Below the pieces are notes generated by a model. That model saw nothing but the letters and a program-made list of their open reading frames with translations. It searched no databases and was not told where the DNA came from. A stretch of 60,631 bases of DNA, filler included, from Hausera hauseri (taxonomy: Eukaryota): the NCBI GenBank assembly GCA_046269625.1. It is 11 parts of 11 records of this genome, joined end to end, with 100 filler letters (N's around TTAATTAATTAA, not from the genome) between each part and the next. Parts side by side here need not be neighbours in the genome. Positions count along the whole stretch, not along the records: positions 43,995 to 50,905 come from JBJURY010052774.1; 10 more parts are not named here. The stretch is one strand, 5' to 3'. Within the stretch, counting starts at the first letter, position 1. Every line of letters starts with the position of its first letter. Shown here piece after piece: positions 3,400 to 56,413 of this stretch. The translations under genes and the position numbers were made by a program.

Positions 3400-4879
3400 T
3401 AAAACAGATATAAGGCCAGCTAAACAGTACAATCTAAGACCACGAGAAAACAAGACCTCGTCAATTATCACCAGACCGATATCATACATTCAAATAATCC
3501 TAGCACTATCAATAATCGCCTCTTATATTCCAAAAACACAAGCTGGATGGAGGCACGACGAAATCACATTAAAGAATGGATACGAAACGCAGAAGAATGA
3601 GATTGATAAAAGGGAAAAAAACTAATATTAGAAGAAACTCAAGGACAAAAAGATATCACGTCATTACAGTCAATCATAATTCAATATTATTCACAGAACT
3701 ATTCATGTGTGTGATTTACAATACAGAAGGCATATTACGATTCTGGAAGATTTCAAATTGACCTAGATGATATAATGACAAAAGCAACACGGCATTGTGA
3801 TTTCTGACATAGAGCGCACGCAATGTTGCAGCACGGAATTTGATCATACTTATAACGTTATCTATCTGCTATATTCATTAAAATTATCGGAAATCTATTA
3901 AGTAAAACCGCAATTTCAATTAGTTATTCCTGCTTGGAATAAGCATCATGGAATAAAGCCTAACGAAATGCTCCAATACATCGATCCAGTAAGGCGAATG
4001 CTGGAACAAAATATCGCCAGGATTTGGGAGAACCCCAGGAACAATTGCGTTCAAGTTAAAACAAAAGGACGACTAATAAACGGTCGAGTAATCTCGGTCC
4101 GGTTTCTGAAGGGAAACATACAAGCTCATAATCAACAATATTGCCAAATCGATGTCAAACAACCAATAATATGTTGCAAGTTACCACAGAAATATGAATA
4201 TAAAATTTAGCTAAATTTATACAAAATCAGAATCAACCAGTCGAGTATTTATTTAGGAAGCTACCGACTCAGAAATCCAGTTAAGTCGAATTTATTTAAT
4301 ATGACAACGAATGCGAAAATAAAGCCAACTATTCCGGCACTGATCAGAACTACTGCAGCGAATAAATCATCTCAAAAAGAACTAGAAATAATTCCAGTTA
4401 AATACTGGACGCAACAGCGTGAAATAACTTTTGTAGTAGAAAAAGCACTTAATTAAGACGTGAAGGTAAGCTGCCGAACATCCTATAATAATCAGAAAGT
4501 AATATTGACAAAAGCGAATGATCAAATCAAATGTACTTACTTGAACCCTGAAACGGATTATATTGTACAAATGGACGCAGAGAATAGACAAAATAAAACA
4601 TTCACGGTACGGACCTTAAATGAAATTGTTTCATTAAAATTATTAACCGATAACGAAGCGGAAGATGAAGTGACAACTACTGTTAAATTAAAACGTTTGA
4701 CCGAACAAACAATTTTGCCGTTAATATCGATTATTGGAACATCAATGTTCCCTCTCATAATCTTAATTGCGTTTTGTCGATTGATTACCAAAAACTGTTG
4801 TATTAAGCGACATAAAATTTATGAGAGGGAATTAAGGGTGATGGTACCACAGAATGAAATAAATGATGGAATATCCTGA
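3400..4879 (+). pseudogene. Post-integrase type I membrane protein (signal peptide, ectodomain, FN3-like domain, TM)
   Basis: ISYIQIILALSIIASYIPKTQAG at ~3476-3547; YCQI..IICCKL; FN3-like CTYLNPETDYIVQM; TM ILPLISIIGTSMFPLIILIAFC. Colinear with 18810-20160. Confidence 0.8.
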
Positions 4880-13194: not shown

Positions 13195-14605
13195 TTATAA
13201 AGGAATATGAATGAATTTGTCTGATGTTGTACTTTTATATCTTATTGACTCTGGCTCGTAGATTTCTCCATCGATGGTTACTATTTCATCTGTCTGGAAG
13301 TTCCTTTTCCTGCCAGAGGTTGGTGCTATTCGCACCTGTTCGGAAGCCGAAGTCTGTGTGATGATTTCATCAGTCCATTTCAGTTGTTTATATATGGCCT
13401 GGTAACATTGTACCAAGGCTGTACTTCGTCGTGGCATTCCACGAGTGTCGTAGAACTTCTTTGCCAACTCCCTTATAAGTACTGGTGGTTAATTGATACT
13501 TACGGATAGTCTCTTCGTGATAAAGGATATCACGAACTCCGGCTATCCGTCTGACTGGGCATTTGCAGTGATTGATCACCATCTGGAGTACGTTGGCTCC
13601 TATTATAATTTTATCAGTAAAAACTTCAGTGATTTTCCGATTAAATTTGTTCGTGTACAATTGGTTATTTATGTTGGATTCAGCCAGACCCGTGAGATGG
13701 GTGTCAAAATTGTTAATTCTTTGTCGTGGGGAAATGACGCTGTAGAAGAGTGTCTGTCCGTTTAACGTTATAACTGAGCATTCGATCTGTTGCATTTGAT
13801 TCCACTGGTCATAAGCTAAGTTAACGGCAGCTATGACCAGGTCTTCGTTTGTAATGTTTTGCATTCTTCTATAAGGAATCGTTTTGTATCGTACGTAATC
13901 AGGTTCTGGAAGGTGGAAGCATTTTCCTTCTGGGATCAACGGTTGAAAATTCTCGTGTTTGATTATTTCGAACGCAATCATTATACGGTTGGAAAGAGAC
14001 CGAATTTTTAGAATGTTGTCTTTTATGAATCGATACTCGAAGGCTAAGGCATGGTCGGGATCTATATTGATCAAATCTGCTTGTATGGAAGTTTTACGAC
14101 TTGTGATCTTTGTGTGAAATTTGCCGGCTACATTGTATATATTCATGGAATGGAATCTTTCTGCTAAGATTATCAGATCTTGGTGGTGGAAAGAAGTCGC
14201 CTTCGTTAATTGAATTAGGGCGAGAGATCTATTGCCCATACTGTATCCTTTGAGGTTGTTGGGAATTTGTGGTGTTTGGGGATAGTTCAAACTGTAGGTG
14301 TAATCATTGTTAGTCACATAATATTGATTGGTTGGGATAGCATTGATAAGATGCGTTTTCGCATTTGTAAACCAATGTTTTGATCGGGAGATTGATTGAA
14401 TTTGATGAGCTATCAAGGTTGATACTATAAAGAGAAATGTCAATCGCAAGTTAATATAGATATCTACACACAACACAACGGTTATCAGACACACAGTGGT
14501 AATCGTTATAGTTTTATAATTTAATTTATCATTATAGGTAACCTGATGACTAATGGTTATCTCTATTAAAAGGGTTGCATGAATAGCAATCCCTAGGCTC
14601 CACCG
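13195..14605 (-). CDS. Accessory ORF: IPNNLKG domain plus degenerate REX4/ISG20-like DEDDh exonuclease (one frameshift near 13470)
   Basis: CSVITLNGQTLFYSVISPRQRINNFDTHLTGL..ITEVFTDKIIIG..VRDI..KELAKKF..AIYKQL follows the REX4/ISG20 pattern. The ExoI DxE is replaced (VIAAVNL). Confidence 0.75.
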
Positions 14606-15304
14606 TCAGATGGGATTAGTAGTGGCTAACGGGTTCGTTAGCTCGCGTAAGTTGATTGGTTCCAAGCTTTGTTTCTTTTTGCGTCGTTGTTGTTGTATCA
14701 CCTTGACTAATATCACTGCTATTATCACTACCACTATAGGGGTTATTGAACATATTATGATTATTTCTAGGCGGGAATGCTTATATCCTGTTCCTAATGG
14801 CTTATTAGTTGTTTTATTTTTAACGGTATTTAATCTGTATGTTGATTCCACTCTGTTACCTTTTGTGATTGCGGACATTACTTTTGTAGAGTTTATTTTA
14901 TCGCGGGTATCTAATAATTGTAGCATAATCGTATATTTCGTATCAGTCTCTAAAGCCGCACACGGCACTATCAGATCATCAGGAGTTATAACTCCTTTTG
15001 CTACTATGGTGTCTTGTTTTTTACAAGTAAATTTAATTTTTACGAAGTCAAAGTCTGGCTTAACAGAGATGATTAGTGCCGTGGGAGCTGCTATGATAGT
15101 TACGTTATCCCATATGGAACGTTTTTGACGGTAGTAAGAAGCGTAAGGCTTAATTAGAACAGTCATCTCTTTATTATCAGCTGAGAGTTGCATAGGTGTT
15201 GCCGTGGTCCCTTCTCGTGTATCATCGTACTCTTTTTGATTCTTATATCGTATAAACATTGTCGGTCCTGTTCTATGCCTTTTATTTTTAAGCTTTCCGT
15301 GTTC
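14606..15304 (-). CDS. Type I membrane protein with FN3-like domain (element C), N-terminus cut by contig end
   Basis: CAALETDTKYTIMLQ; TM IIIICSITPIVVVIIAVILVKVI followed by RRKKK. Same position and architecture as in A and D. Confidence 0.75.
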   Translation of the reverse strand, partial: EHGKLKNKRHRTGPTMFIRYKNQKEYDDTREGTTATPMQLSADNKEMTVLIKPYASYYRQKRSIWDNVTIIAAPTALIISVKPDFDFVKIKFTCKKQDTIVAKGVITPDDLIVPCAALETDTKYTIMLQLLDTRDKINSTKVMSAITKGNRVESTYRLNTVKNKTTNKPLGTGYKHSRLEIIIICSITPIVVVIIAVILVKVIQQQRRKKKQSLEPINLRELTNPLATTNPI

Positions 15305-18809: not shown

Positions 18810-20160
18810 TCAGGTTATTTTATCATAAACGTATTCTTGGTGTTCCAATACTCTTAATTCCCGTTCTATGATTTTAGGGCGCTTAGTTTGGTAATTTATG
18901 GTAACTAATCGAAATATAGCGATATATAATATCAGCACAAGCGTTGACAGGCTTACGATCATTACTATGGGTAATGTAGTTAACTCTTCGGGTTTTGTAG
19001 TCGTTATCTCTGTAGTGATTTCCTGTCTTGTGTTTTTGTTTGCATGTGGTGCTATTTGTATTTCTTCTAGGATTTGTACTTCGAAGGTTCGGCTCTGTAG
19101 GTCTTTTTCATGCATTTGTATTATGTATTCTGTCTTTGGTACTAATGAGTTGCATTCGGTGTGGTATGTGCCTTTCAATAAAGTTTTTATATTCTTATAC
19201 CTCGTGCGGCAATTTATTTCGACATTATAGTTGAGCTTCTCTTCCACCGAAAATATTATTTTGCGTTGCTGTGTCCAGCACTTTACAGGGATCTTAAGTA
19301 ATTTCTTTTTGTTCATCTTCTTTGTCGTAGTAAGCCTAACAGTAGTGCTTACTGGGACAGTCCGTCTCGTCGTCGTTGTTTCAGTCGCAATTTTCCAGAT
19401 TCTACTGTCCGGATAATATCTTCCTAAATAAGGGCTCGATTTATTTATTTGAATTCCATAGAGGTCAATATGAATCCTATATTTATAACCTTCTGAGATT
19501 TTACAACAGATCCTAAGATCTTTGTTCTTGATGCTACAGTAATTGGGAGTTGGACTTAACTCGTTTATTTTAGTAAATTGCATTGAGATCTGGTTGTTTG
19601 GCAATCTTGCCTTTGTATCTATTTGAATACACTTGTTTTTCTTATCTTCGGAAATATCAACTATGTTTTCATTCAATGCCCATTTAATGGGGTCGGTTGA
19701 CTGTACTGTCACCGAACTCCGTTGCATTGATCTGTTCTTTGACGGGTATTACTAGTTTTACTTGCGGTCTTATCGCTCCTTGGGTGCGTTCGTAGTTTTT
19801 ATAGTACATTCGTATTGTGAAGGTATACGTTTTTCCATAATTTATGACTCAACATCTTTCTCGAGCTCCATACGGAAAATCGCAATGGGTCATTACTCGT
19901 TTATTTCTGTTCCATAGAACTTCTTGGTATTTCACTGATTTTCTCACGGTTCCGTCCGTCTTAAATAGCACACAGTCCCATCTTGGATCTATACTTTGGA
20001 CCTCGAATTGATCTAAGGTGCTTAAGTCATTTCTTTTTGTTCTTATCAATTCATCCTTCATCCATTTGTTTAGTTATTGAATCAATCCTCCTTGTGCCTT
20101 GGTTTTTGGAATATATGAAGCTATCAATGATAGTGCTAAGACTATCTGTATGTAAGACAT
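18810..20160 (-). CDS. Post-integrase type I membrane glycoprotein (signal peptide, ectodomain, Thr-rich stalk, FN3-like domain, TM, Tyr tail); 5' part disrupted
   Basis: MSYIQIVLALSLIASYIPKTKAQ; 305-aa ORF with TETTTTRRTVPVSTT, CNSLVPKTEYIIQM, TM LPIVMIVSLSTLVLILYIAIF and tail EYVYDKI. Confidence 0.82.
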
Positions 20161-21535
20161 GTGTCTGGTAAGTATAGACGAGGTCTTGGCTTTCCTGTGT
20201 TTCGTTTTCTTGTTCGCTTTTGTATCTTTTACACGTAATTGATGTCGTTTACTTGGTCTTATCTCTGTTTTCACCACTCGCTGTATTGACACGACGTCTT
20301 CCGTTTTTATTAATCTAAACTGCAGTGGGTGTTATTCTGATAACTTCGTATGGTCCTCTTCCAGTACGCGTGAGTTTTAACGATGTGCCCTTTTTAGCTA
20401 CGGAGTAATGCACATAGATCCTATCTCCGATTTTTAAATCGTGCGGTTTCGTCTTGTCGTATTGTTTTTTAAATCCTTGGTATTCCATGGAGAGCGTCTT
20501 CGCTACCTCCCAACATTTTTGCAGCCTAACCTGTAAAACGTCTACAAAATTTGGTTCTAGTTCCTCGAGAATTGCTTCATACAGAATAATTCCTAAGTCC
20601 GTAGGTAATGCTGCTTCTCGACCATACATCATGAAGAATGGTGTAAATCCCGACGCGGGGTGTGGTGTTGTATTGATGGCAAACTGTGTACCCTCTAAGA
20701 ATTCGTCCCAATCCTTTTGATCTTTCGCGACTACGGTTGACAATATTCGTATTACAGTAGCATTCATACGCTCAACCATTCCATTACATTGGGGATGATA
20801 AGCTGTCATAGTTAACCCCTCGATTTCGAATATTTTCGTAATTTTATCGAATAGTTCGCTGGTGAAGTTTCTCCCTCGATTAGTTAGTATTTTATCGGGC
20901 GGTCCGTATCTACAGATAATTTTCCTTACCACGGCTTCGGCTAATGTTTCTGCTCTTTGATCATATAGCGCTATTAACTCTACAAAGTGAGTTAAACTAT
21001 CGACGCATGTTAGTATATATTTGTTATTCTTGTGCGCCGTAGGTAGTGATCTTAAAATGTCGATTGACATGGTTTGCATTGGCCTGTCCGGTACAGCTAT
21101 TGGTTTCAACTCTGTCATGTAATTTCGCATTTTTTTCTGTTTAGTTGCACATACTTCGCAAGGGTTTACCCAATTATTCACATTAATATATGTACTAAGC
21201 CAATAGTATTTGTTTACCGCTCTATCTAGCGTCTTCTTCCAAGACATGTATCCTGCTAAATACAAATCGTGTTCGGCCATTAACACTTCAGTTCGCAAAA
21301 TTTTGGGTATAACTACTAACTTTCTTCCTTTTCGTTTATAATACAAAAACTTTTTCACTGTCTTTGTTCTCTGAGACATAATATTTATGCCCATGTCGTT
21401 GTAAATGTTTCTTTAACTGGTGCCCTTTTGGTAACACGTCTATTTCGGCATATTCAATGATTTGTTGGATAACTCGATCCTTCTTTTGTTCGTTTGAAAT
21501 TTTGATTGCTCCGTCTGACACTAAAGTTCGTTGTC
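20161..21535 (-). pseudogene. pol: Gypsy integrase
   Basis: CEVC, SIDIL, LTNRGRNF, TAYHPQCNGMVERMN, GRGPY. Confidence 0.95.
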
Positions 21536-39144: not shown

Positions 39145-39360
39145 TGTTTTGGTTTCAGTAACAGTCTTGTTGTACGTTATTTTCATACTACCTTTCAATG
39201 TCACCGGTGCGTAGGGAAAGTCAAATTCCGTCAGTGCAACCTCCCATTTTCCAACAGATAAATCCAAAGGATTGTTCCAATCTACAACGTATTCACTGGC
39301 TAAATTGTTTGGACGAGTTGTCGGACAACTGTTGCTCGGCAACACCATGTAAATACTCAT
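39145..39360 (-). CDS. Penton/minor capsid-like protein 2, N-terminus
   Basis: IYMVLPSNSC..PNN..Y..PLDL..GKWEVALTEFDFP, the Polinton/adintovirus penton N-terminal motif. Confidence 0.72.
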
Positions 39361-39501
39361 GATCTCGATGATGATGATGATTATCGTGATGATGCCAGAA
39401 TCCAGTTCGATAGAAGCCAGAAGTTGTTTACGTTCTCCACCAACGAGTACGGATTTGGTTAAATTCGTTACAATGTTGATTCGGTAAAATGCTCCATAGA
39501 G

Positions 39502-40275: not shown

Positions 40276-40276
40276 T

Positions 40277-41310
40277 GAATCTGTGGTGCAAAAATCCAAC
40301 TCGGTTCAGTGTATCCGTGCCACTTGACGAAATATTGTTTATTCAAAACTTTGCCACGTGAACGTAGAATTTACTGAATACCATATACATGGAATTTCTC
40401 GAGCAGTACCTGCAGTTTCTGTTCGCAGAATTTACTGCGTATTTCCTCACCGTTTTCATCCTCTAAAACGTATATGACAGGTGTTTGTTTTGTGTTAATT
40501 GTCGAGAAACGGAAATCCTTGTCGCTGCAATTCTGATTGAAATTTTTAATGAATGGCGTCGTGCTTATTTTCGAAATACGTACGTAAGCACCGATTTTAT
40601 ATCTTGGGCGTTTAATTGCCTATCGTTTTTAGTTTTGATAAAGCCACATGTCCAAATCATCGATTACATCAACCTGGCGCATTCCGTTAATTCCACGGAG
40701 TGTTGAATGACTGTATGCTTGCATAGTATCCGGCAGTACATCTACCCAGCGTTTTTTGCCTTGCTTCGTAAAGAATTTGTTTAAGCGACCACGCAATGTT
40801 CGATTCAATTGTTCAACAAGTGCAGCTTTGTATTATGAAAATTCCGAATAGTGGTTTACGCCGGACCGTTTCAAGACCGCTACAACGTGGGCGTTGCATA
40901 ATTACTTACCCAAATCCGTTTGTAAATGCTTCTGCTGTTGTTGTTGTATCAGCATCTGAACAGCGTCAGCAATCAGTTTACCGGATTTGGATTTCACAGC
41001 AATTGCATATGCAAAACGGCTAAACATATCAATACATGTTAGCACGTAAAGATACCCATCGTTAATGCTGGCATGCGGAATGATTTCCATTAGATCCATT
41101 TGTCATACGTTATTTACACCGGAAGCACGCTATGCGCGAGTTGGAAACCTCCTTCTTATCGGTTTGTTTAAGCTGTATGCTAACTGTTTCCCGAGCCAAC
41201 GTTGGGTCTGTGGCCGAGTCTGTTTGACAGTCTTTGCCAGTTTGTCGACGCCAGTATACCCGACGAGATGACTCAGATCGAACCACACGTTGCCCATCGT
41301 TGTCATAGAT
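40277..41310 (-). pseudogene. Polinton RVE integrase with C-terminal chromodomain
   Basis: YTGVDKL, WL..QLAYSL.KPIRRRF, QMDL, YLYVLTCIDMFSRFAYA, LQTDLGK, QYFVKWHGY. Confidence 0.88.
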
Positions 41311-41429
41311 GATGTCACTTTTGTTTGCATTGCAGAAATTTGAACGAAAAGTTAAGGAGAAATTCGGCAAACTTGGTCAAAATGATGAAAACCATGAACC
41401 CATATCGCTAAATCATCATATACTTACCG

Positions 41430-41769
41430 TCACTGTTTATAGTATGCTGCTGCAAAACCAATGTGTTCACCCAATAATGACGTGAAAATCGGTAGAATTG
41501 CACCAAGGAATCCGCCATCTTGCTGGTACATTACCTCTCGTTTCAGTCGTTTACAACTAGCGTTGGCAAGGTCAGTGAGTCGTTTTCGATACTTTAGTAA
41601 ATTCTTGCATTCCACTACCAATGTCAACGTGACCCATAACGATATTGTATAAAATTTCCATCAAATCGTTTACTACAAACTGCGGGAATAAACGTAGCAT
41701 GTTTCGCTTATGTTTCGTAGGTGCCTTGAGCAAAGCAATAAAGTATGGCTGACTACGTTTGAATCGCAT
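41430..41769 (-). pseudogene. Small Polinton protein with a GGFL amphipathic motif (frameshifted)
   Basis: LLKAPTKHKRNML..LMEILYNIVMG / QQDGGFLGAILPIFTSLLG. Confidence 0.65.
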
Positions 41770-41809
41770 ATATAACTTGGTCGGTCCAGACCGACTTCTT
41801 CTCTGTTTA

Positions 41810-43894
41810 ACAGCACCGCAACCAATCCACTGACTGCCGAAGCTTGCTGGTATACGTAACCAGCCGCTTTTCCGAGTTACATAGGCGTAAATTGAGCCGC
41901 TTTTTCAGATTCTCCACTGTTCTTCCGTACAGGGAATTGTTTTTCAACTTGTAATAGTCCTTTTCAAACTTTGTACAAGCTGTGGCTTATTTCTTCGAAT
42001 TTCCATCTATGTACGCTTTGAATATGGGAGCCTGAGCAAATCTGATTGCACGATGCAGCTGTGTGACGCGTACACCGAGCTGCATGTACAACTGTAGCAG
42101 ATGCCAATAGACCATGTAATTCAGCTTCGGTTTATGCGCCATGAGCAGTTTCTTCACTTTTGAGCCTTGCGGACATTGATTAAATGGTGCAACAGGTAAA
42201 TCGTCCAAAACGTTATTTAGTTTATATGGTACTACGAGATCGACCTCCATCAGGTATTCGATTGAGTCTGCCATGTCTACTCGTGGTAGGTTAACCATTA
42301 CGTCGTCCAGATCTTGTGTGTCAAATATTCATTCAAATGAACCGTATGGCAAGGGTTGCGAAAGCACCCAGCCGTACAGGTTATTAATATCAATATACAA
42401 CATTGATGTGGTATCGGTAGCACTGACCTGGTGCTTGTTGGCAAATGTCATGCCCCCACAAATACTAACATTAAACATTCCGTACATTTCTGGGTCTTGC
42501 AATAGCTCTATATCCCGATCCTGTGACATCAGAGCTGATACCCAACTCATTCCCGGTATGAAATAAAAGTTGAGGGGCTCCAGCCTATCTTCTGCTAACG
42601 CTTTAGCTCGAAATGTCTAAAACACGTCGGCTAACAAGTACTCGTCCAATTTCAGATTCTGAAGCATGTACTACAATAGGTTTCTGCAGCCGAGCTCTGT
42701 CCAATACGATTGTGCATTGTGATGTTCTTCTTCTGAGATACCTGGCCATTGCGGTAATAATTCGTCTGTCGTCTGGAGCCGCTCTTACAATATCGCGAAA
42801 TCATACGGGAATATGCCTTTGCTACATGCAATGTGTGGAGAACTAAGTTAATGTTAGAAGCACATCTGACAAGGCATTTACCAGCTTTACCAGAGATTTA
42901 TTGTGAAATTGCAATGAATTAAAGAAGCGTACCTGGAACCCGTTTATTCAAGCAGACAGTGACAGGTATTTTTCCATCTTAGTCGGAATTATGGAGAGTT
43001 CCCAGTGCGGAAAGCCGTTAATGGCCCGTTTGAGAATATGGTGACAGTCATAACATAGGAAATTATGAAAGATCACCGGCAGGAAAGGTCGCACTCGCCT
43101 TGCTAAATTGCATGAATTGCATAATGCTCCCAAGTATCGACTGGTGAAATGGTCGTGATCCGATACCAGCCGTTCCTGCGCATCAAACGGTATTATTTTG
43201 TGGCACAGATAGCATTAATCGGTGACATCGAAAAGCAAAGGTTGATATTCGTCTGCCCAAATCAATGGCTTATTGCAATTTTTCCGATACCACGGCGCGA
43301 TTTTCGTTGCTTCTATGGTTTACAACTGCTGCAGAAAATTACGTACACAGTTCCAACCATGGAAAACGTAATACTGCGGTTGTCCGGCGGCTTTTATTGG
43401 TACTAGCAATATACCGAGGGCAATTGAAACGTGCTTTTGATCGTATACATTGTGCCGTGGTACAATTTCTTCTATATCGGCGTACACCAAATATGCAGGA
43501 CTTTCCGCTTTTGACCAGTCACTAAATCTGAACTCCTTTTTGACTGGCATAACATACATTGTGGTTCCTGACGAAGTTTACCTGCACAGCACCGCATGCT
43601 TTTCCCATGTCTCATTTGACTGAAATCCATGCAAACACACAGGAAACCATTTGCATCCTATACGCTTTTTGATGAACTAGTCATACTCCATGTTCAACAA
43701 TCTGTCTAAATTGGTCACGACCGTGTAATGAAACTTCTCTTCATTTTCCAACAGCAACAAATTTACTAAGCGTCTAATTGGATTTCGACTGTGGCAAATT
43801 ATGTCCACGTGAGGATTCTTGTAAATTTCCTCATCCACCAGTATCTCTACAATTGTGTTAAACCGGAACATGTTGATTGCCAGTGTCCGATTAC
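41810..43894 (-). pseudogene. Protein-primed family B DNA polymerase (pPolB), C-terminally deleted
   Basis: LVYADIE, DHDHF..YLGALCNSCNL, VIFHN..YDCH, ICGG, motif A YIDINNLYG, motif B KLKNNSLYGRT. No DTDS motif C before the next gene. Confidence 0.88.
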
Positions 43895-43994: not shown

Positions 43995-45505
43995 AAATTT
44001 TATCCGTATTTTCATATACGTTCTAGTAGCTTCATTAGTCTTGAACCAGATACATGGTTTCTTCCAATCTATGTCGTAAGCTTTCATTGTCTTGAGGTTT
44101 TCTATGTCCTTTTGTCCTTCCCTAATTTGTTGATCTAACTTAATTTTAGCCTCTCTTCCTTTCTTACTGATTCCGTAGATATCTGCTAAACTAGATTCGT
44201 CGTGCCACCATTGGGCTTGTGTCTTTGGAACATAAGAGGCGATTAAGGATAATGCTAGGATTATCTGTACGTAGGATACTGGTCTGTTAACTATGGCTGA
44301 TGTTTTTGTTTTCTTTTTGTCTTGATTTGGTTTTAGATTCTGATCTCTGGATCGTAAATTATATTGTCTGTTTGGTCTTATTTCTGTTTTAACAACTCTT
44401 TGAACGGAGATTATCTCTTCTTTTCCGTTTTTATTAATATATATAGTAGTTGGTGTGGTTCGAACAACTTCATAAGGTCCTCTTCCGGTACGAGTGAGCT
44501 TTAAGGACGTACCTTTCTTTGCTACTGGATAGTGTACGTAAACCCAATCTCCCTTTTCTAAATCATGAGGTTTGGCTTTCTTATCGTACTGTTTCTTAAA
44601 CTGTTCTTGATATTCCCTAGATACCTACTTTGCTATTTCCAACGCTTTTATAATCTCGTATGCAATACTTCAACAAATTTCTGTTCTAAATCTTCTGGAT
44701 TTAACATACACGGTGTCATGCCTAAATCCGTTGGTAATATGACATCTTGTCCATACATCATGAAAAATGATGTAAATCCAGTTGCGGGATGTGGCGTGGT
44801 ATTTATAGAAAATCAAGTTCCTTCTAAAAATTCATTTCAATCTTTTTGATCTTTTGCCATTACTGTTGACAAAATTCGTATAACTTGCATTCATTCGTTC
44901 AACAATTCCGTTACATTGAGGATAGTAAGCTGTCGCAGATAATCGTTCAATTTCAAATATTTTGATGATCATATCGAATAATTCGCTTGTAAAAATGCTT
45001 TTTCCATCTGTTAAAATCTGTTCGGGAGGTCCATATCTGCACATAATTTTTCTTACTACGGCTTCTTCCAGAGTTAGATGGTCAATAAACGTCAAAAAAT
45101 ATTACATTTGTGAGTGGTGGTTAACGGTCCTACAATATCCATGGACATTGCTTGCATTGACCTATCCGGTAAGATTATCGGTTTCAACTTAGCTATTCAA
45201 TATTGCACTTTTCTTTGTTTAGTTGCGCATACTTCACAAGCGTTCACCCAATTCTTTACATCAATATAAATGCTTGGCTAATAATATTTAATATTCTTTG
45301 TAATGTCTTTCCAAGATATGTGTCCAACTAAGTATGATTCGTGTTCGGCCGTTAGTACTTCTGTTCAGTCCTTTTGGTATAACTACTAATTTCTGTCCCT
45401 TGCGTTCGTAGTATAAAACGATTTCATGAGTATTGCCATCCTTTACGCAGTATTTACGACCGAGTCTCTGCAAATGTTTTCGTAATTGGTAGCCTTCTGG
45501 CATAA
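43995..45505 (-). pseudogene. pol: Integrase continuing in frame into a signal peptide and ectodomain
   Basis: Open frame from ~44623 to 43995: ..GRGPYEVV..RQYNLR..PVSYVQIILALSLIASYVPKTQAQWWHDES..PCIWFK. Confidence 0.88.
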
Positions 45506-45509
45506 TGTC

Positions 45510-46110
45510 TTTTTCTGTAAATTCAATAATTTAATTGGAGTTGGAGCATTATTTACTAATCTAATCATCACACGACCTGACGATACCCTCGTTAATACAT
45601 TACTGAGTATGATGTTTGGATTCAGCGTTTCTTTTGGTTCGAAATACACTGGCTGATCATCGTTTTGACGAATCTCTGTTCTGGGTGGGATATTTGCATC
45701 CACTGGAATCCATACTTCTCCGGATTTTCTATCTTTGATGATTTTTACTCCTTTTATTGGTCAAAGTTCTATTAATTTTCCTGCATAAAAATCTATTGCT
45801 CCATTTGGTAACTGTGTCAGTAAATCGTATCCTAATATTACATCGTCAGTTAACTGTTCCATTATTGAGAATTCATGATGAAATGATAATCCCATCATGT
45901 GAATTTCAGGATTCCATCTGTATTTACATCTCGATAACTGGCCAAAAGTTCCAGTTTTTCCTGGTCTGCTGCTGGTAGCAGATACAGTTGTTTTCGTAGC
46001 ATTTGTGGTATCGAGTCGTGTTTGATCAGTGATATTTCAGATCCTGTACCGATTACTACAGAGACCTCCCAGTCTTCAATATGAATTTTAGAGAAAGGTC
46101 TTCCTTCTAT
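45510..46110 (-). pseudogene. Aspartic protease plus dUTPase-like spacer
   Basis: GRPFSKIHIEDWEVSVVIGTGSEISLIK; IPPRTE..YFEP..IRLVNNAPT, matching copy A. Confidence 0.85.
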
Positions 46111-46789
46111 TGTGCCATAACAATTTGGTAAATCTTTAGTGCTTAATTACTGATAATTTATACCCATTTCTGGAATTGTAACTGGTTCATCAATTAATTG
46201 CCTCAATTCTCCATTCGGATACAATTCATTATTTACATAATTGACCGTCTCTGTTTCTTGACTTCTAATTATTGTTTGTGGTTCTTGACTTTTGAAAGTT
46301 TGCATTTCTTGGTCTCTTGACAATGTTGATCTGGTTTCATTGGCTCCATGTATTTTTGTAAAATATAGTATTCTATGGTCATCAAATGAATGGTGTCTGT
46401 GCGGTGCAGATGTACTTCTTGTTTCACGCATTTTCGTAATACACCATAGTGTTTCGTTCCTTCATAAGGATCATCAAAATTAAATGGTTTTCTAGATTTC
46501 CGTTTAATATGAACTCGCTGATCGTTTGTCACAATATTCATATGCTGGTGCAGTTGGAGGTAACATAGGCAATGGTGGTTTTATGACGGAATATGCTTTG
46601 TCTGTTTATTCTGGAAACGGCATCTCTTATCTTAGGCTAGTCAAAATCTGAATTATTTCTTCGCGTTTTTAGATTAATAAATTTTCGTCCGTAATTAAAG
46701 GTGGGTCTTTTCCGTCGTTTACGATTATAGTAGCCAAAATGTCCTTCTACATCGTTTTTCCATCTACTTTCTTCGTAGACCTTTAAAAA

Positions 46790-48500
46790 TTTACCGAAAG
46801 GTGTTATGATCGCAGTTAAAAATTTGCACGAAAATCGTATCAGCGTAAATGTCTCACTCATTTATGATTGGTTGAATTACTGCTTTGACTGATTGTACTA
46901 GAAAATATATTGGTAGAAATCCAGATGCGGCTTGTCAAGAAATTAGGAATCTTCCCACAATTTTATAAGGTTTCTGTAGTCACTCTTCGGTAGTGCTTAG
47001 TATCAAGTAACGATTCCCATTTTGCTTGATACCGTGTGCCTTCTAATACTGTATACATCGCTCTGTTTATGTTGACGTTGGAAAGCTAGAAACTGTCTAA
47101 TTGCTTAGACTTCTTTTGGTCTATAAATACTTTTAGTTGCAGTGTCATGGAATTTGTCATCTGTCATTCCTTTCACTAAGTTAGTTTCTGTCAATATACT
47201 GGGCGGAGTGGTTATACCTTCGTTCGGTAAACTCATCCATTCCGTTTCGTTACGTGTGAACATAGGTACTCCTCAGCTTGCTTTGCATTCTTTTAGGACT
47301 GTTGGTTCAGTCTAATTTGCCAAGACAGCTCCAGTAAGTGGCATTTCCAACCTTGGTGTATTTTGGTATAAAACCGGAAGTTCTTCTATACATCTCTTCT
47401 ACATTGATCGGAACATCTCATCACATTAGCAAGTTAGGAAAACTTCACCGGTGACTCAACCAAAAATGCCTTCTTCCATTGGAATTATTGGTGATGCTAA
47501 CTCAATATTGGCATATATCAAGTCTAGTTTAGTTCTCATAATTTCCATATCCAGTTTACAGTCGTCCGTTACCATTTTGTGATACAATTCGATTATTCTG
47601 GCTTGTTCTTTGTAATAGAAGTAATCATCTACTTTTCAAATAATCGTCGATTCGTACGTCGTGTCAAGTTTGAAAATTTTAGAATCTAATTCTTTTTCGG
47701 TTACAAAGAATGCTTCGTAATTAGTGACATACATTATAACAGCGCATCGTGAACACAGCCTTATTGATAAATTTTAACCCATGAGCATCCGATACTAAAA
47801 TAGTTTCCATAGATTGCACTACCACATCCTCTCGCGATCTCATTGCCATCTGCCTTATTTAAATATCTTTTCCTTGAAGTTTCGTTAAATGTTAATTCTT
47901 TAATTTTAATAAAGTTTCAATCTGTTTTTAGAAGGTTGTTCCCATACTATAATCGAAATTCTAAAAGCACAAGTGCCGTCTTATATATGGCATTTCTCAT
48001 TTTCATTGTAGAGCTTAGTAAAACTATGGAACATCGCTTGCTGCGTTCGCATGTGGGTCTCGTAGAAATTAACTACTACTACACCCTCTTCTTTTCCTTT
48101 TCCAGTATCGTATTCAGCTCCAGTACATAGTCCTGTGTGCATGTATAATTTTCAAAGCGCTCCTTTGAATGATCTAATTATTTTTCCTTAATGCAATTCC
48201 AGTTCCATACCTTTCCATGCTAATCTACCAGTTTCTTTAGCTTGTTTACAGTGCTGTCTTTCCAAATTCATTGGGATCGGCTGAATGTTTGGCTTTATTA
48301 AATGCATGAATGTCCATGCATTTGTCCACAATGGAAAATACTACGAGATCTAGGTAACATACATTCTATTCCGAATTCATCTAATACTCTACCTCTAAAA
48401 TAGAGTCGATAATTTACGTCACTTTTAGCATCGTTATTATCCATTGTTTTACATCTCTAACAGATGAAGCCGTTGTGCACTCACATTCTTTCTCATCCAT
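46790..48500 (-). pseudogene. env: Chuvirus-G/herpes-gB-like class III fusion glycoprotein (env-like)
   Basis: Colinear motifs: SVRDVKQ(C); ECML.RSRSIFHCG.MHGH; ERQHCK; GLCTGAEY..GVVVV; IVWEQP; MYVTNYEAFFV; ELYHKMVTDDCKL; GIFG.VTGEV; CIEELPVLY; ATKSIY..RQFLAF; membrane region QAASGFL.IYFLVQ..FSCKFLTAII. Confidence 0.85.
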
Positions 48501-50359
48501 CCACTCGGATGACACCTTTACTTTTAACGCCACATCGGGTTTAGCCCTCAAGATTTTAGCATCTTTTATTAAGAGTTTTGGCACAGCACTATAAATCGTG
48601 TTTTCGCTAGATAATTTAGTTTAAGTATGAATAAATCGTCTTAACGTATTTTCAGCGAAATTTACGTTAATAAGTTCAATTAAATGTCTCTCAGTTAGCG
48701 CTGGATCCAGAATAATTTCTACACTGAATCTTCGATTCTGTGGGTACATATTTGTTTCATACAGGTGTACTGAAGTTTTCGGATTTCCGTCGATCATTGA
48801 ATTCAAATATGCATCCCATTCTGGATCGTTTTCGTTTTCTGGAGTTACATTGTCAATTAATTGCGTATCTGATTGTCGTGTTACGTCTACGTTTTATGCC
48901 ATCTCTCTTCGCATAATTTCTGATAAAATTCAAGCATTAGAATTGTCCGGAAACAGATTCCAGTCCCACAAACACCATGTAACAAGTTCAACAACTGATA
49001 GTTCATCTTCTTGGATGATTCCTTTTTCTGTGCAATTGGTTAATTCGGATATTACTTCATATTGCCATCTTTGTACAAACTCTGATTTGTTGGCCATTTC
49101 TGATTCAGTGAGAGCTTATTTATTCCTGTAGACTTCCACGTCTTTGACAAATTTCTATTTTTCTTTCGTCCATACGAATTTGGGTTTTCTGAGTATGACG
49201 TATCAGGCTTTGTAGCTGTCTCATTTTCTCATCGTTAACTTCGGCTATTTCTACTAATAACAACTTTAACCTGCTCATTTTCTTTAACGATTTGGCGTCA
49301 GGGTTGATTTTTTCAATCAATTTTTTTATAAAACTAGTTTCTGCGAAAGTGAGTTGATGGTCTTCCACTATTTCTATTAATTCGTCATGCTATTTTTAAT
49401 CTGATCCAGGCATCCATCTAGATGGATTTTGCAGAAATTTAACACGTCTGCAAAAGAGTTCTAGTAATCCGAACAAATCTCTAATATCTTACATTCTTGT
49501 GTTGTGATCTCGTTTATGGGTTTTACCGTTAGATTCTGTATTCCTTCTAGATGAAAATTCCTAATTATTGGATAAAGGTCACAAGTTCTACTTCGCCTTG
49601 TTGAGAAGTTTAATTCCAGTCATTTGGTAGATTTCACGTAACAACGATGTCTCGTTTTTGCTCATTCAGATGCATTCGTATACCTATTTCTGTTCTCAAT
49701 GTCTAAATTTCGCATAATTTCGTTTATTTCCTGTTTCAGGGTCGACTGGACATATGGATATTCTTTCATACGCTTAAGAATTCGTCGGTTTAATTCGGTC
49801 AATAGATCATACCATTCCTTCAATTGGTTATCAATTACCGGTTTGATCACTTGCTCTATCTAGCATTTTGTGACAGTCTTTTAACCTGTCATCTGGACCT
49901 TCTATAAGACCCATAATTTGTTTGACAAAGTTAAACTCATTTTTATATTCATCGAATTCCAGAATACAAGCTTCAATTATAGCTTTTGTGTCGTCATTGT
50001 TTAAGTTCATTATTCGGTTCCTTATGCAATAAATTTCCGACCACTTGCCATTTTCTTCCTCGATGTGAGTTTCGATATTCCCATATGGCTTAGGTTCAGT
50101 AAACGCAATTCACATCATCGCCATCAGAGGTGGGATATCTACCGCATCAATACTCAATATTTTCAAGTTAGTTTCGTTTCGCGAATCAAACGGTTTCTCT
50201 TACAGGTAGGTAACTATATCATATCTTGCCGCACTCAGCAATTTGTTCGGATTACCGTTTACTCGCTTTGATTGTGGATTTTCTAACGTGGGTATTAACT
50301 CGAGCCTTAGTTATTTTCTCACCAATGTGATCCCAGTCTTGGTTCATGATTCTGGAAGA

Positions 50360-50905
50360 TTAGTTCCACTTTTTATCCAGATTTAATTCAGTTTTCCAAT
50401 TCTCTATCAAGTCAATTGACTCGCCCAATTTTTCTTCATTGAATGACATTAATTTCGTGTACATTCTTTCAGTGAACTGCTGTTCCTTGCCAGAAATATC
50501 CACTTCTAATATCATTTCGAAATCTTGAGCTAACTGCAAAGTTTTATCAAAGTTTTCTGGTCGAGCTAAAATAAAATGTTTTAATAAATCGCTAGACCAA
50601 ATACCATTAATTAGTTGCGTCGTCTTCATGACGTCTAAATCAAGGAGTTGCTTTTCTGCGCAACTACATTAACTAATCTTAAAGTATTCACATAACTATT
50701 TGCAAGCTTCTTTAATGCAAATGCAAACTGGGTTACCGATTCACCCTTCTGTTACATTCTAATCTGAAAAGCAAAGTTTTTGTTGCGAGGTCACCGTCGG
50801 TAATAATTTTCGACTTAAAACTCCTACCAGGGAAGACCAAGATTTCTTCTCATCGTTAGTGAGTTCACTATAGGCATCAGCAGCCAAATTTTTCAAATAT
50901 AATGA
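50360..50905 (-). pseudogene. gag: Retrotransposon Gag (capsid) domain
   Basis: YLKNLAADAYSELTNDEKKSWSSLV..; GESVTQFAFALKKLA; QLINGIWS..PENFDKTLQLAQDFE. Confidence 0.8.
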
Positions 50906-51199
50906 NNNNNNNNNNNNNNNNNNNNNNNNNNNNNNNNNNNNNNNNNNNNTTAATTAATTAANNNNNNNNNNNNNNNNNNNNNNNNNNNNNNNNNNNNNNN
51001 NNNNNTTTTTCGGTTAGTGCTATTGATCCTATTTTCGGTATATACGAAGCAATTAATGACAAGGCGAGTATTACCTGTGCATAGGATATCGGTCCGGTTA
51101 CTATCGTCGACATATTCTTGTTTTTCTTTGAAGGATTTATACTTTCTTTACTCAAACGCAGGTTGTAGCGCTTGTTTGGTCTTATTTCCGTTCTAACTA

Positions 51200-54100
51200 C
51201 TCTTTGGATGGACATAATCTCTTCCTTATCGTTTTTATTAATATTAACTAGTTGGTGTGGTCCGAATAACCTCGTACGGTCCTCTGCCTGTACGAGTGAA
51301 TTTCAAGGATGTGCCCTTTCTTGCAACCCAATTCCATTGTTCTAGATCATGTGGTTTGGCTATATTATCATACTGCTTCTTAAACTGCTCTTGATAATCT
51401 GGATAATTCTTTGGCTATTTCCCAACACTTGCGTAGTCTCGTCTGTAACACTTCCACAAAATTCCGTTTAAAATCCTGTGTGTTCACTGTATACGGTATC
51501 ATTCATAAATCTGTGGGCAGCGCAGCTTCCCTGTATTACATCATGAAAAACGGGGTGAATCCCGTTGCAGGATGTAGTGTAGTGTTTATGGCGAATTGCG
51601 TGCCTTCTAAAAATTCGTCCTAATCCTTTTGGTCTTTCTCCACTACGGTTGGAATGATTCGTATCACTGTCGCGTTCATTCATTCAACCATTCCGTTACA
51701 TTGAGGGTGTTAAGCTGTCGTGGTTAGTCTTTCGATTTCGAATATTTTGGTAATTTTTTAGAATAATTCACTCGTGACGTTTCTTCCTCGGTCTGTCAGA
51801 ATTTGTTCAGGAGGTCCGTATCTACAGATAATTTTCCTCACTAATGCTTCTACCAGAGTTTTGGCTTTCTGGTCCATTAATGCTATCAGTTCGACGAAAT
51901 GAGTTAGGCGATCTACACACGTTAGAATGTAATTGTTATTTTTTGAGTGGTAGGTAATGGTCCTACAATATCCATGGACATTGCTTGCATTGGTCTATCC
52001 GGTACGTCTATTGGTATAAGTTCGACAATGTAGTTTTTCACTTTACTTTGTTTTGTTGCGCATACTTCACACTCATTTACCCAATTTTTCACGTCTATGT
52101 ATATGCTTGGCCAATAATATTTATTTAGTATTTTCTCTAAGGTTTTCTTTCATGACATGTGTCCGTCTAAGTAGGAGTCGTGTTCGGCCATTAACGCTTC
52201 TGTTCGTAATTATTTTGGTATGACTACTAATTTGCGTCCCTTGCGTTCATAATACAGTATGTTTCCATGATTTCCGCTTCCTGCTACGCAATATTTATGA
52301 CCGTGTCTTTGTAGGCGTTTCCGTAATTGGAGCTCTTTTGGCATTCGGTTATTTTCAACATTTTCGATGATCTGTTGTATGACTTTGTCTTTCTTCTGTT
52401 CGACTGAAATTTTAACTGCTTTATCCAATGTTAGAGTGTGTTGTCTGTCTAGTAGTTCTTCGAGCTGAGTTTTTCTCATTACAGTAATTGCGCTCGTTTT
52501 AGTTTTAAACTTTGATAGTGCATCAGCATCAACATTTTTGCTTCCAGGTTTATGTTTAAATTCAAAGTTATACCATGAGATCTCTTCTATCCATCGTTTG
52601 AGTCTACAAGTGGGGTTATTTGCTCGGTCCTTCAAGGTTGTAACTGCCTTATGATCCGTAGCAATTATAATCTTCTGTCCGTAGACGTATACGTTAAAGT
52701 GTCGTAGAGCTTCTTTTACAGCTAACGTTTCTAATTCCGTGACCGAGTATTTCTTTTCGGCCTTTTTTATTGATCGTCCTCGTACGCGATCGGGTATTCT
52801 AGTTCTTCGTCTTCCCGTTTTTGGGCCAACTCATACCCGATGCCCTCTTTGCTTGCGTCCGTTTTAATTATGAAAGGTAGATTAAAATCAGGATATCTCA
52901 ACACAGGTTCACTAGTCAAGATTTTCTTCATTTCGTCGAAAGCTTTTTGTTCGACATCGGTCCATTTTCATTTAACTCCTTTTTTAAGTAAGCGATACAA
53001 AGACGCATTTATTCTTTAATTGTCAGGAACATAAGTGGCATAATACCCATATAAACCTAACTAATGCCTTAGCTCCTTCTGATTTCGAGGTTCCATGAAA
53101 TCTGATATTTTACTTAACAGCAATTTATCGGGTCTCGATCCCCCTTCTCCGACTATATGTCCGAGATAAGATGCGGCATTTTGAGCCCATTTACATTTCT
53201 TGGGGTTCAATTTCAATACGGCTTGTTCTATCCTCATAAGTGTATCCTCAATATCCTTCAAATGTTCTTCTTCTGTCCTTGACGCGATCATTACGTTGTC
53301 TAGATACGCGAATACATGTTCCAATCCCATTAACATCCTGTTCATCATTCGAGTAAAAATGGCTGGTCCGGTAGTTATCCCGAATGGCATGACATTAAAT
53401 TCTTATACACTGTTGTGTGTCTTAAATGCAGTTTTATAACGATTTTCTTCCTTTATTTCTACCTGCCAATATCCGGATTGCAGATCAAGTGTGGTGAACC
53501 ATCTAGCTCCGGAGAGTCTGTCTAAGGCTTCTTTTACGGAAGGTAGCGGAAAAGAGTCTTTCATCATAAGTGTATTTAACTCTCGATAATCGATACAGAA
53601 TCAATGTTTCGTGGTATCTTTCTTCTTATCCATAAGTATGGGTGAGTACCAGGATCTATAGCTTGGTCTAATTATGTCAGCCTTTAACATTCGTTCTACT
53701 TCCTTCGTTATTTCCGGTCTTAATGAGTGGGGCAGATGATACCATTTCGGCATTTTCTGGTCTTCTAAATCTATTTCATCACTGGAGCCAAGCTTTTTCT
53801 TAAGTGGAATCGTTAGTCTTAAGGTTTTAGCTCTGCCAATATCTTCTTCATCTCTGGAAATAACCAAGTTATAATGGCAAGGTAATTCGTAAAATCAACA
53901 ATATGCTTCGGGTGAGAATTTAGTTTCGACGTGAGGTGGAAATTCCGCACATTTGTAAGGTTCGATAGTTATTGACGATACTCTATACGTATGATCCAAG
54001 GTGGTATTGGCGTACAGTTTGAATGGAGTTAGTACATTATTAACTATTCTAATGGGCACACGGACTGTCGATACTCTGGTTAAAACGTTACTGAGTATAA

Positions 54101-54610
54101 TGTTCGGATTTAATGATTCTTTTGGTTCAAAGTATACTGGTTAGTCGTCGTTTTGATGGGTCTGAGCGTATACTAGCACCTCTGTGCTAGGTGGAATGTT
54201 CTCATCTACTGGAATCCAAACTTCTCCGAACTTTCCAACTGTGGTGGTTTTAACTCCTCTTATCGGACCAAGTTTTATTAACTTTCCTGCATGGAAGTCT
54301 ATTGTCATATTAGGTCATTGTTTCAACAAATAGCATCGTAAGACTACATCGTCTGTTAACTGTTCCATTACTGAAAATTTGTGATGAAATTATTATCCCA
54401 TCATGTGAATTTCTGGCGTCCATCGGAATTTGCTTTCCGATGACTGTCCAAAAGCTCCGACACTCTCCGAGTCCGTTGATGAGGGTGGATACAGTTGTCC
54501 TCGCGGGAGCTGCGGTATTGAATCATATTTTATTAGAAATATTTCAAATCCTGTGTCTATTAACGAGTAGACTTCCCAATCTTCCAACTGAATTTTTGCG
54601 AAGGGTCTAC
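51200..54610 (-). pseudogene. pol: Gypsy pol PR-RT-RH-IN
   Basis: SLIDTG; WYSPILM; MPFGITTGPAIF..YLDN; TDASK; KPGSKNVDADALS; IN core. Confidence 0.95.
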
Positions 54611-55269
54611 CTTCGATTACCAAGCCGTAGTAATTTGGCGCTAATTTTTGATGTTGAACCGTTGATACCTTATAGCCGTTAATTTTAACTTCAGTGGTGG
54701 CAACTGGCTGGTTGATCAATTGTTTTAACTCTCCAAATGGGTACAATTCATTATTCGTACCATTTACGTTTTCCGTTTCCCAACTTCTAACCCATATTTG
54801 TATATTCTGGTTTCCGAAATTCTGCGTTTCCTGGTCTCTTGAAAATGGTCGATCGTATTTCATTCGATCTGAGTATTCTAGATGAATAAATTATGCCGTG
54901 ATCGTCGACGGCCGAGCGACGATATGGGGCAGACGTTCTTTTCGTTTCGTGGACCTTACGTAATATACCGTAGTGCTTTGTTCCATCGTAAGGATCTTCA
55001 AGGCTAAACGGTTTTCTGTAGATATCTGTTTGATATGAGCTCATAGATTGTTTCTCACAATCTTCATATATAACTGCAGTTGGCGGTAATATTGGTAATG
55101 GTGGTTTTACGATGGAATAGTTTTTGTGTATATTTATCTTGGAGACGGCGTCTCCTCTCTTAGGCTCGTCATCATCTGAGCTGTCTCTTCGTGTCTCCTT
55201 TTACGTTTTCAATTGTGATAGCCAACGTTTTGTTCCACATCTGCTTTCCATTTACTTTTCTCATAAGGT

Positions 55270-56015
55270 CTTAAGAGTTTGCCGAAGGGTGTGATAATAG
55301 CCGTTAGGATTTAGCACGAGAATCTTGTCAAGGTAAATATCTAATATCCATTTATAATCGCTTGAATAATTGCTTGAACCAGTTGAATTAAGAAATAAAT
55401 GGCCAGAAATCCTGATTCGGCTTGTCCGAATATCAGAATCCTTCCCCAAATTTTATACCGTATCTCTGTTGTTACTCTTTGATAGTAGTTAACACCAAGT
55501 AATGATTCCTATTTTGCTTGATAAAACTTGTCCTCTAGTATTGTATGCACCGCTCTGTTTAATTCATGTGTGCGTTGGTGTGGAAAATCAAGAAATTGTC
55601 TAAATACTTTTACTTCTTTCGGTCACTAAATACCCTTTGCTGCAGTATCTTGAAACTTATCATCAGTTATTCCTTTTATTAAATTTGTTCCCGTTAACTT
55701 GGTGGGCGGAGTAATTATACCACCATTTGGAAAAATTTATCCAATCGGTTTCGTTTCGTCTAAACATCGGTTCTCCTAAACTGGTCTTGCGGTCCTTTAG
55801 AATTGTAGGTTAAGTGGAGTTTGCCAGTAATACTCTAGTAACTGGCGTTACTAATCTCGGTGTGTCCTGATATATTACTGGAAGTTCTTGTATGCATCTC
55901 TTCTCCTCTACATTAATGGGTACATCTATTTTCTCGCATTCATAAGTCAGTAGGACTTTTCCGGTCACTCGACCAAAAATGCCTTCTTTCATTGGAATTA
56001 TTGGTGATGTTGAGG
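55270..56015 (-). pseudogene. env: C-terminal half of the chuvirus-like glycoprotein
   Basis: GIFGRVTGKVLLTYECEKIDV..RCIQELPVIYQDTPRLVTPVTRVLL; AAKGI..FRQFLDFP; KIWGRILIFGQAESGFLAIYFLIQLVQAIIQAIING. Confidence 0.85.
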
Positions 56016-56413
56016 TCACGTAACAAATCGGATTGATTTTGCATAGATTATGACTTTTATGCTGAATGACTATAGGCATTGACTATGACACTATCATGTT
56101 TACCGACTTTTCTGAATGTTTACTGACTTTTNNNNNNNNNNNNNNNNNNNNNNNNNNNNNNNNNNNNNNNNNNNNTTAATTAATTAANNNNNNNNNNNNN
56201 NNNNNNNNNNNNNNNNNNNNNNNNNNNNNNNTCTGGTAAAAACTTTCTTTAATGCCTTAATCTATGGATAGACAGTAGTGACATTGGACAAATAATATAA
56301 TGTGCTAACACTTTGAAAAATCCCACGTTTCGCCATTGATCAGCTATGTACTTTTCCATTGATTACAACATTGTTTTTTTCTCAATTATTTTCTTATTGA
56401 AGTAGTTATTCTT

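Follow-up and report, generated by a model that had tools for sequence, protein, structure and literature searches.

A many-copy Ty3/gypsy family, probably of a pulmonate snail, with a decayed class III fusion glycoprotein gene placed between gag and protease

Introduction

How does a viral fusion glycoprotein come to lie inside the Gag-Pol region of a retrotransposon, and does it belong to the element there? The question is raised by a stretch of 60,631 nucleotides from the Hausera hauseri assembly GCA_046269625.1 (here called the window), which consists of 11 contigs (A to K) with N-linkers between them. Contigs I (43995-50905) and J (51006-56131) both carry an element on the minus strand. 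A preliminary description of the sequence had pointed to a decayed reading frame in contig I, related to the glycoprotein G of chuviruses and placed between gag and protease, and had mentioned that such glycoproteins have been captured by BEL/Pao elements.

Related arrangements have been described. In the planarian Burro/GYPSM1 elements, an env matching mononegavirus fusion proteins lies in frame between gag and pol, which Arkhipova and Yushenova (2019) called the first such case (PMC6431247). Ty3/gypsy elements of the order GAG-ENV-POL with a gB-type env were reported from Nematoda, Bryozoa, and Platyhelminthes by Chary and Hayashi (eLife 2026; PMC13524379), who also cite the nematode metaviruses of Sacco et al. 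(2022), in which a captured glycoprotein gene precedes pol. In arthropods, chuvirus G insertions and BEL/Pao captures of G are common (PMC7642597).

Results

A class III fusion glycoprotein in two diverged copies

Translations of pieces of contigs I and J, with X at stops, were scanned against Pfam. The family PF24664 (Monjiviricetes_fusion) was matched by four of the 12 pieces scanned, two of them below the curated cut-off; the matches at 47000-47785 in I (E 5.4e-9) and at 54300-55769 in J (E 1.2e-17) lie above it. In addition, a G profile of 634 positions, built from 13 intact relatives, was aligned to the DNA in a frameshift-aware manner. On contig I it ran from 48426 to 46845 (profile positions 57-599) with 189 bits compared to 21 for the best of 15 shuffles, and on contig J from 56010 to 55278 with 157 bits compared to 20, so that the class III fusogen match is significant in both copies. 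Reversed frames gave no match to the G profile. These data confirm the decayed chuvirus/gB-like frame in I as well as the claim that J carries the C-terminal half of G ahead of its protease. The cysteine-anchored blocks listed in the preliminary description were also found in the translations, the forms A.KGI and FGQA.SGF being those of J.

The G of contig I has accumulated 5 frame changes and 14 in-frame stops, and the half present in J 1 frame change and 6 in-frame stops. The family has 14 conserved cysteines, the first two of which fall outside the alignment in I; 11 of the 12 inside the aligned span are retained. The hydropathy of the G anchor is 1.45 in I versus 2.15 in J. A clear signal segment before G was not found in I, where the maximum within 48440-48700 (1.52) is below that of all 14 relatives. 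Since the anchor of the same copy also scores low, the absence of a clear signal may reflect decay.

Table 1 Features of the G-bearing element family in the window
Feature	Contig	Position	Strand	Evidence
Gag capsid remnant, truncated by contig end	I	50695..50905	-	42.4 bits vs 18.8 for the best of 40 shuffles
About 750 decayed codons between gag and G	I	48480..50690	-	Weak likeness near 48564 to helical/ubiquitin-like linker of relatives
Remains of a class III fusion glycoprotein of the Monjiviricetes/chuvirus G type, predicted gB-like fold, membrane region at the C-terminus	I	46800..48480	-	Pfam, profile; fold from intact relative P0040
Coding linker from G tail to protease, LYP motif at 46224	I	46110..46800	-	Third-position excess, I vs J
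Protease with the spacer behind it; deletion at ~45530 of RT and RNase H, which span about 1.6 kb in the pol of contig A	I	45530..46110	-	
Integrase	I	44400..45420	-	
Hydrophobic signal-like segment (44279), in frame with integrase end, then start of second predicted membrane protein; cut at contig end	I	43995..44330	-	Open frame 43995-44624
C-terminal half of G, membrane segment (55403), tail; contig ends within G	J	55200..56131	-	Pfam, profile
Coding linker to protease, LYP motif at 54746	J	54640..55199	-	Third-position excess, I vs J
Protease, RT, RNase H, integrase; Ty3/gypsy order	J	51250..54639	-	
Signal-like segment after integrase (51089)	J	51006..51150	-	
Post-integrase signal-like segment, FN3-like repeat(s), membrane segment; same family	A	3400..4879	+	E 6e-8, profile of relatives only
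Post-integrase signal-like segment, FN3-like repeat(s), membrane segment; same family	D	18810..20300	-	E 3e-4
End of FN3-like membrane protein, then ORF related to exonuclease ORF after polyprotein in L001 and L002	C	13388..15304	-	E 3e-9, 1e-8; profile E 0.012

G is embedded in a Ty3/gypsy element

Contig I reads gag-G-PR-IN and contig J G-PR-RT-RH-IN (Table 1). In I, the protease follows about 230 codons past G, with the integrase next, whereas RT and RNase H are missing (13.5 bits compared to 450 for J), which identifies I as an internally deleted copy. Because contig J stops within G, the gag side is directly visible in I alone. There, a smaller gag profile also matched the remnant (28.7 versus 18.8 bits); Pfam gave no match to it in the one frame scanned. 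The position of G between gag and protease, as given in the preliminary description, is thus borne out with one amendment: gag does lie upstream, but about 750 codons away rather than adjoining G. In these codons the match to the linker of relatives is weak (21.9 bits versus 20.0 for the best shuffle; none of 40 shuffles reached it), and a Bcl-2-like domain was not significantly matched, as 3 of 40 shuffles reached its score. No CCHC zinc knuckle pattern was present in three frames of 48400-50700, where decay may have removed the knuckles, and Pfam showed no accessory domains of the Burro type in the frames of I that were scanned.

Over their common parts, contigs A, D, I, and J share 68-72% DNA identity, and the G-protease junction of I is repeated in J at about 70%; the RT of contig A is 87% identical to that of J. 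Pfam matches in J and A comprise RVT_1, RT_RNaseH, Integrase_H2C2, and rve, and a Pao-type family is absent among them. The closest solved relative of the RT-RH of contig A is that of yeast Ty3 (E 2e-55). By domain content and PR-RT-RH-IN order, the pol accompanying G is therefore assigned to Ty3/gypsy, and a BEL/Pao setting was rejected.

The contigs end inside the element, and no LTR, primer site, or target duplication was found within them. Likewise, a long direct repeat is absent from I and J, none of the five largest repeat families shown flanks G, and the window holds no tRNA gene. With the many stops and frame changes in G and the loss of RT and RNase H from I, the window copies are dead. 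They show neither the intact frames nor the near-identical copies that would mark recent activity; younger copies may exist elsewhere in the genome.

G and its linker to the protease were once under selection

Copies I and J were compared by codon position, the frame being the one with fewest stops and blocks shorter than 36 bases or with tied frames being dropped. Third positions held 60 of 106 mismatches in the G ectodomain (p 7e-7), 37 of 77 in anchor and tail (p 0.005), 66 of 138 in the G-protease linker (p 3e-4), and 48 of 105 in the protease (p 0.006). This excess shows that both G and the linker were coding and under selection, and that they were kept as protein long after the lines of I and J had split. 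The substitution pattern between the copies, one of the checks proposed for this locus, hence speaks for a functional past of the whole segment. Together with the shared junction and the lack of a flanking repeat among those seen, it supports the earlier view that a chance nested insertion is unlikely; on these grounds G appears to be an integral part of the Ty3/gypsy element.

Intact relatives encode G within polyproteins

Relatives were obtained by searching a 262-residue piece of contig I against 1.84 billion cluster representatives, which gave 50 matches, 16 of them at E <=1e-10. Of the 15 long matches that were scanned, 11 are single proteins in which protease and/or RT come after G, in some cases with gag ahead of G; in one, RT precedes G, two carry G without enzymes, and one is unrelated. 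Locus L002 (97-11208 of a metagenome contig) holds a single intact, Burro-like frame of 3703 codons from gag through a C-terminal membrane protein. It encodes, in this order, capsid, two zinc knuckles, a ubiquitin-like domain, a hydrophobic signal, G and its anchor, two proteases, RT, RNase H, integrase, a second signal, an ectodomain, and a second anchor; an exonuclease-like ORF follows the polyprotein. In all 14 relatives examined, a hydrophobic stretch (1.67-3.32 on a 13-residue scale) ends 2-11 residues ahead of the xYDC start of G. Accessory domains of relatives are ubiquitin-like in L002 (E 0.0026), Bcl-2-like in P0040 (E 0.001), and ankyrin in P0077.

Other searches recovered little: a word-index protein search with the G piece gave one match among longer proteins, and with the G of P0029 the query itself alone. 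Locus scans with G recovered two loci from metagenome contigs but nothing from viral ones, and those with RT were negative for viral as well as genome contigs. Two further features of the relatives deserve mention. P0036, P0038, and P0077 contain tandem aspartic protease domains, 2-5 or more. The entry P0029 (HBK71150.1) is assigned to a Flavobacteriaceae MAG although it encodes a complete G-PR-RT-IN-membrane polyprotein; here animal DNA has probably been placed in a bacterial bin.

Fold and phylogeny of G

The fold was taken from the intact relative P0040, standing in for the window G and modelled from a 29-row alignment with a mean pLDDT of 79.6. Searched against viral models, this model was closest to a chuvirus glycoprotein, that of Tacheng tick virus 4 (E 4e-42), and the best match in the PDB was herpesvirus gB (E 4e-13). 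By homology and by the predicted fold of its relative, G is therefore best classed as a chuvirus/gB-like class III fusogen, as anticipated.

In a tree of the C-terminal half of G (44 rows, four near-duplicate rows left out), the sequences of I and J fall within a 22-row group (SH-aLRT 96) that includes all close polyprotein-type G and lies away from the named chuvirus and beetle sequences; the branch of the window G is long (1.16). Joining the window G to 17 free or arthropod-type rows was rejected by an AU test (p 0.018), which was run on 41 rows, without two long branches and a further duplicate, and for a group named after the tree was seen. The phylogeny thus places G with polyprotein-embedded G, apart from free chuvirus and arthropod-type G.

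The RT tree (14 rows) groups A and J with contig F (support 100/99), outside a 7-row clade of G-polyprotein relatives. Contig F has no G between knuckle and protease, and it follows from this grouping that G was either lost in the line of F or gained by that of A and J. On the RT tree, the G module has been lost or exchanged at least once. The element in F (26891-31576, minus strand) is an env-less sister gypsy element with a zinc knuckle about 1.3 kb ahead of its protease, and contig E (21636-26790, minus strand) holds a distant gypsy element without G and with a long RT branch.

A second predicted membrane protein and a YP motif

A signal-like segment follows the integrase in frame in I, J, A, and D, and it leads to a predicted FN3-like membrane protein in the window family and in five full-length relatives. 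In A, C, and D, a domain with the pattern C-x2-L-x-P/T-x-T-x-Y/H is followed by a membrane segment. The pattern occurs in five of seven long relatives checked, one of the other two being truncated in the integrase, and once in 48,678 residues of other proteins. A narrow C-terminal profile, made from relatives only and resting on a motif chosen by eye, matched A (E 6e-8), D (E 3e-4), and C (E 0.012), with a stray match in contig B (E 0.056); a profile covering this region more broadly had no clear match. We take the pattern to resemble an FN3 signature, and the nearest Atlas clusters are FN3 membrane proteins (0.83 and 0.86), which provides a lead. Searches of Pfam and PDB sequences gave no FN3 match for the protein, and the model of the L002 protein is poor (mean pLDDT 45.8). 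An FN3-like nature is tentatively suggested by pattern and Atlas neighbours.

In 10 of 13 relatives, two of which are near-identical, a hydrophobic-Y-P motif chosen after looking at the sequences stands 30-56 residues ahead of the protease active site, compared to 12 of 329 background windows; I and J have it at the corresponding place. We presume that it is comparable to an ALIX-binding late domain.

Some ORFs near the second membrane protein were also recorded. The intact 405-codon ORF in contig C (13388-14605, minus strand) is kin to the exonuclease-like ORF after the L001 and L002 polyproteins; the one of L002 matches the RNase T family (E 0.001), while the catalytic motifs of the contig C ORF seem altered by eye. 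A RING finger (C3HC4, E 3e-6) is encoded downstream of the second membrane protein in contig D (16670-16820, minus strand) and could represent an accessory function of the element.

Copy number and host

From a sequencing run (X1) that is possibly the source of the window, 7032 contigs aligned to contig I at identities of at least 80%, filling 30 of 30 bins. The great majority (6364) were less than 95% alike and 156 at least 99% alike. One diverged contig, with 53 differences, is colinear over 48456-48769, the gag-side edge of G. Depth was 4-9.5 for contigs identical to I and, summed over the family, in the thousands, a summed depth not being a copy number.

Contig K (57503-58444, minus strand) encodes an intronless rhodopsin-family GPCR of an expansion in pulmonate snails, with Candidula, Biomphalaria, Bulinus, and Physella as named best matches (5 of 24 matches carry these names). 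Through this link, which runs via another contig of the same window, the host of the element is likely a pulmonate snail of land or freshwater. The five land snail and slug species of the published survey considered next are, we assume, Stylommatophora. In supplement 6 of PMC13524379, three of the five have 4-6 uncurated pol candidates in ENV-POL order, compared to at most three in each of the other 38 gastropods, and all 46 mollusc elements listed have an F-type env. In openly accessible article text, we found no report of a gastropod GAG-G-POL case or of the post-integrase protein.

The window contains other sequences besides these elements. Two TRAF/MATH domain exons in opposite orientation in contig B (6328-6882, plus strand; 8075-8581, minus strand) were considered as part of the element and dropped, as they resemble exons of what is probably a host TRAF-like gene. 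Contig H (39145-43894) has two ORFs on the minus strand (39502-40227 and 41987-42328) with no Pfam match, which by eye are presumably like the minor capsid and B-type polymerase of Polinton/Maverick elements. A tandem repeat, long and diverged, makes up contig G (31677-39044), and the many open frames there are spurious.

Discussion

Taken together, G is quite probably the decayed env of a many-copy, Burro-like GAG-ENV-POL family of Ty3/gypsy elements. The host of the family is likely a pulmonate snail, and the ancestral element likely encoded one Gag-G-PR-RT-RH-IN polyprotein. This reading is carried by the homology of G, by the order gag-G-PR-(RT-RH)-IN, and by past selection on G and the G-protease linker; the relatives contribute single-frame polyproteins and, in one case, a predicted fold like that of gB and chuvirus G. 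From the coding linker and these relatives we infer one reading frame from gag to pol for the window copies before their decay.

Hydropathy predicts how such a polyprotein would be arranged in the membrane, and the workings of retroviruses and class III fusogens suggest the steps that may follow. The chain would be threaded through the ER membrane with Gag staying cytosolic. An internal signal after the Gag region would direct G into the lumen, signal peptidase would free the N-terminus of G, and the G anchor would bring the chain back to the cytosol, where the protease could sever Pol from the tail of G. Gag, G, and Pol would in this way be made 1:1:1 on one membrane patch, and neither a frameshift nor a spliced env RNA would be needed. 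Through its YP motif, the tail might recruit ESCRT/ALIX for budding, and G trimers might fuse the particle with a target cell, probably of the germline or a stem cell. The second signal after the integrase would release the FN3-like type I membrane protein, possibly an attachment partner or a host-modulating protein.

Other explanations have to be weighed against this polyprotein. That G is an independent chuvirus-derived insertion, an EVE or a piece of a BEL/Pao element nested in a gypsy copy, was worth considering given how common such events are in arthropods (PMC7642597). This is by now largely refuted and hardly credible: two copies about 70% alike share the junction, selection acted across it, many diverged copies cover G with no flanking repeat among the five largest families shown, and the G tree and the AU test (p 0.018) place G elsewhere. 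It is also unlikely that G was integral but encoded in a separate frame, with adjacent GAG, ENV, and POL ORFs expressed by frameshifting, readthrough, or splicing. PMC13524379 does present GAG, ENV, and POL as ORFs in this order and uses none of the terms polyprotein, single ORF, or fused, and a spliced leader could supply the signal segment missing before G in I. However, the G-protease linker is coding and constrained along its length, 11 of the 15 long matches are fusions of G to protease or RT, and L002 is one frame throughout.

The missing signal could also mean that selection still maintained G in the snail lineage after the signal had been lost; G would then have stopped entering the ER, and the family would have moved as an intracellular retrotransposon with a structural or vestigial G. 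In I, the region ahead of 48441 indeed lacks a hydrophobic segment as well as any match to the first two cysteines. Where G borders the gag side, a diverged copy is colinear, and the sister element in contig F lacks G. We nevertheless regard such a loss as very unlikely, as the 11 of 12 retained disulfide-type cysteines and the strong third-position bias fit a folded lumenal protein and decay has erased the score of the anchor in I too. Finally, the element may be as described but come from another organism whose DNA was sequenced along with that of the snail, such as a flatworm or nematode, in which case the host would not be new. Known carriers are worms and bryozoans (PMC13524379), and neither contig I nor contig J contains a host gene; against this, the depth of 4-9.5 for I-identical contigs and a summed family depth in the thousands fit a main genome component, and candidates in ENV-POL order are more numerous in three of five land gastropods (4-6) than in the other 38 gastropods (at most three; PMC13524379). 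A passenger origin is hence improbable, and a polyprotein-encoded G in a likely snail host is the reading we prefer.

By analogy, the element would have worked like Burro and the GAG-ENV-POL errantiviruses. The gag-G-protease layout was already in print (PMC6431247; PMC13524379). With Burro the family shares a Ty3/gypsy pol and the placement of a mononegavirus-like fusion glycoprotein behind Gag and ahead of the protease, which in the intact relatives is in frame; of the accessory domains described for Burro (Ubi2/SUMO-like, BCL2-like, MATH, BIR, ankyrin), the relatives have ubiquitin-like, Bcl-2-like, and ankyrin ones. Compared with Burro as described, the window family is decayed and likely gastropod, its gag-G stretch of about 750 codons has no clear Bcl-2, MATH, BIR, or knuckle, and the CCHC knuckle after the capsid, present in contig F, was not found. 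Features described for Burro also include a giant size, with more than 25 kb internal sequence, and a dUTPase-like domain between PR and RT; the window contigs, which end inside the element, are 5-7 kb long. The post-integrase membrane protein and the downstream exonuclease-like ORF are unmentioned in the Burro section of PMC6431247. The errantiviruses of PMC13524379, whose main text contains neither the word fibronectin nor the word Burro, are similar in their Ty3/gypsy pol, gB-type env, gag-env-pol order, and many copies; the window copies, in contrast, are not intact and would therefore fail the filter of that study. Non-canonical nematode metaviruses likewise have env ahead of pol in a Ty3/gypsy element. 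The mosquito BEL/Pao element Anakin (PMC7642597) has a glycoprotein of the same family, PF24664, but here pol is of the Ty3/gypsy type and G stands apart from arthropod and free chuvirus G. Troyka elements were dropped from the comparison, as none encodes an envelope (PMC12440569).

What is likely new here, judged from sequence, is the snail host, the second predicted membrane protein after the integrase, and the YP motif before the protease. Because the layout itself is known, the gain lies in range and anatomy and not in a new kind of system. The second membrane protein and the YP motif amount to two testable ideas on attachment and budding. They also allow a bolder reading, which we consider possible though doubtful: these elements might be enveloped invertebrate retroviruses that obtain two-protein entry from one giant polyprotein, a gB-like fusogen with an FN3-like receptor-binding partner, with a YP late domain driving budding, and that reached land snails in many copies. 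The FN3-like protein would then be comparable to gD or gH/gL beside herpesvirus gB. If true, this would answer how gB-type errantiviruses enter cells without herpes partner proteins, which PMC13524379 leaves as an open question. Decayed families such as this one evade surveys that require intact frames. The rare layout of a fusogen inside Gag-Pol would, with this family, likely extend to Mollusca, where the published env-bearing elements listed are all of the F type (PMC13524379).
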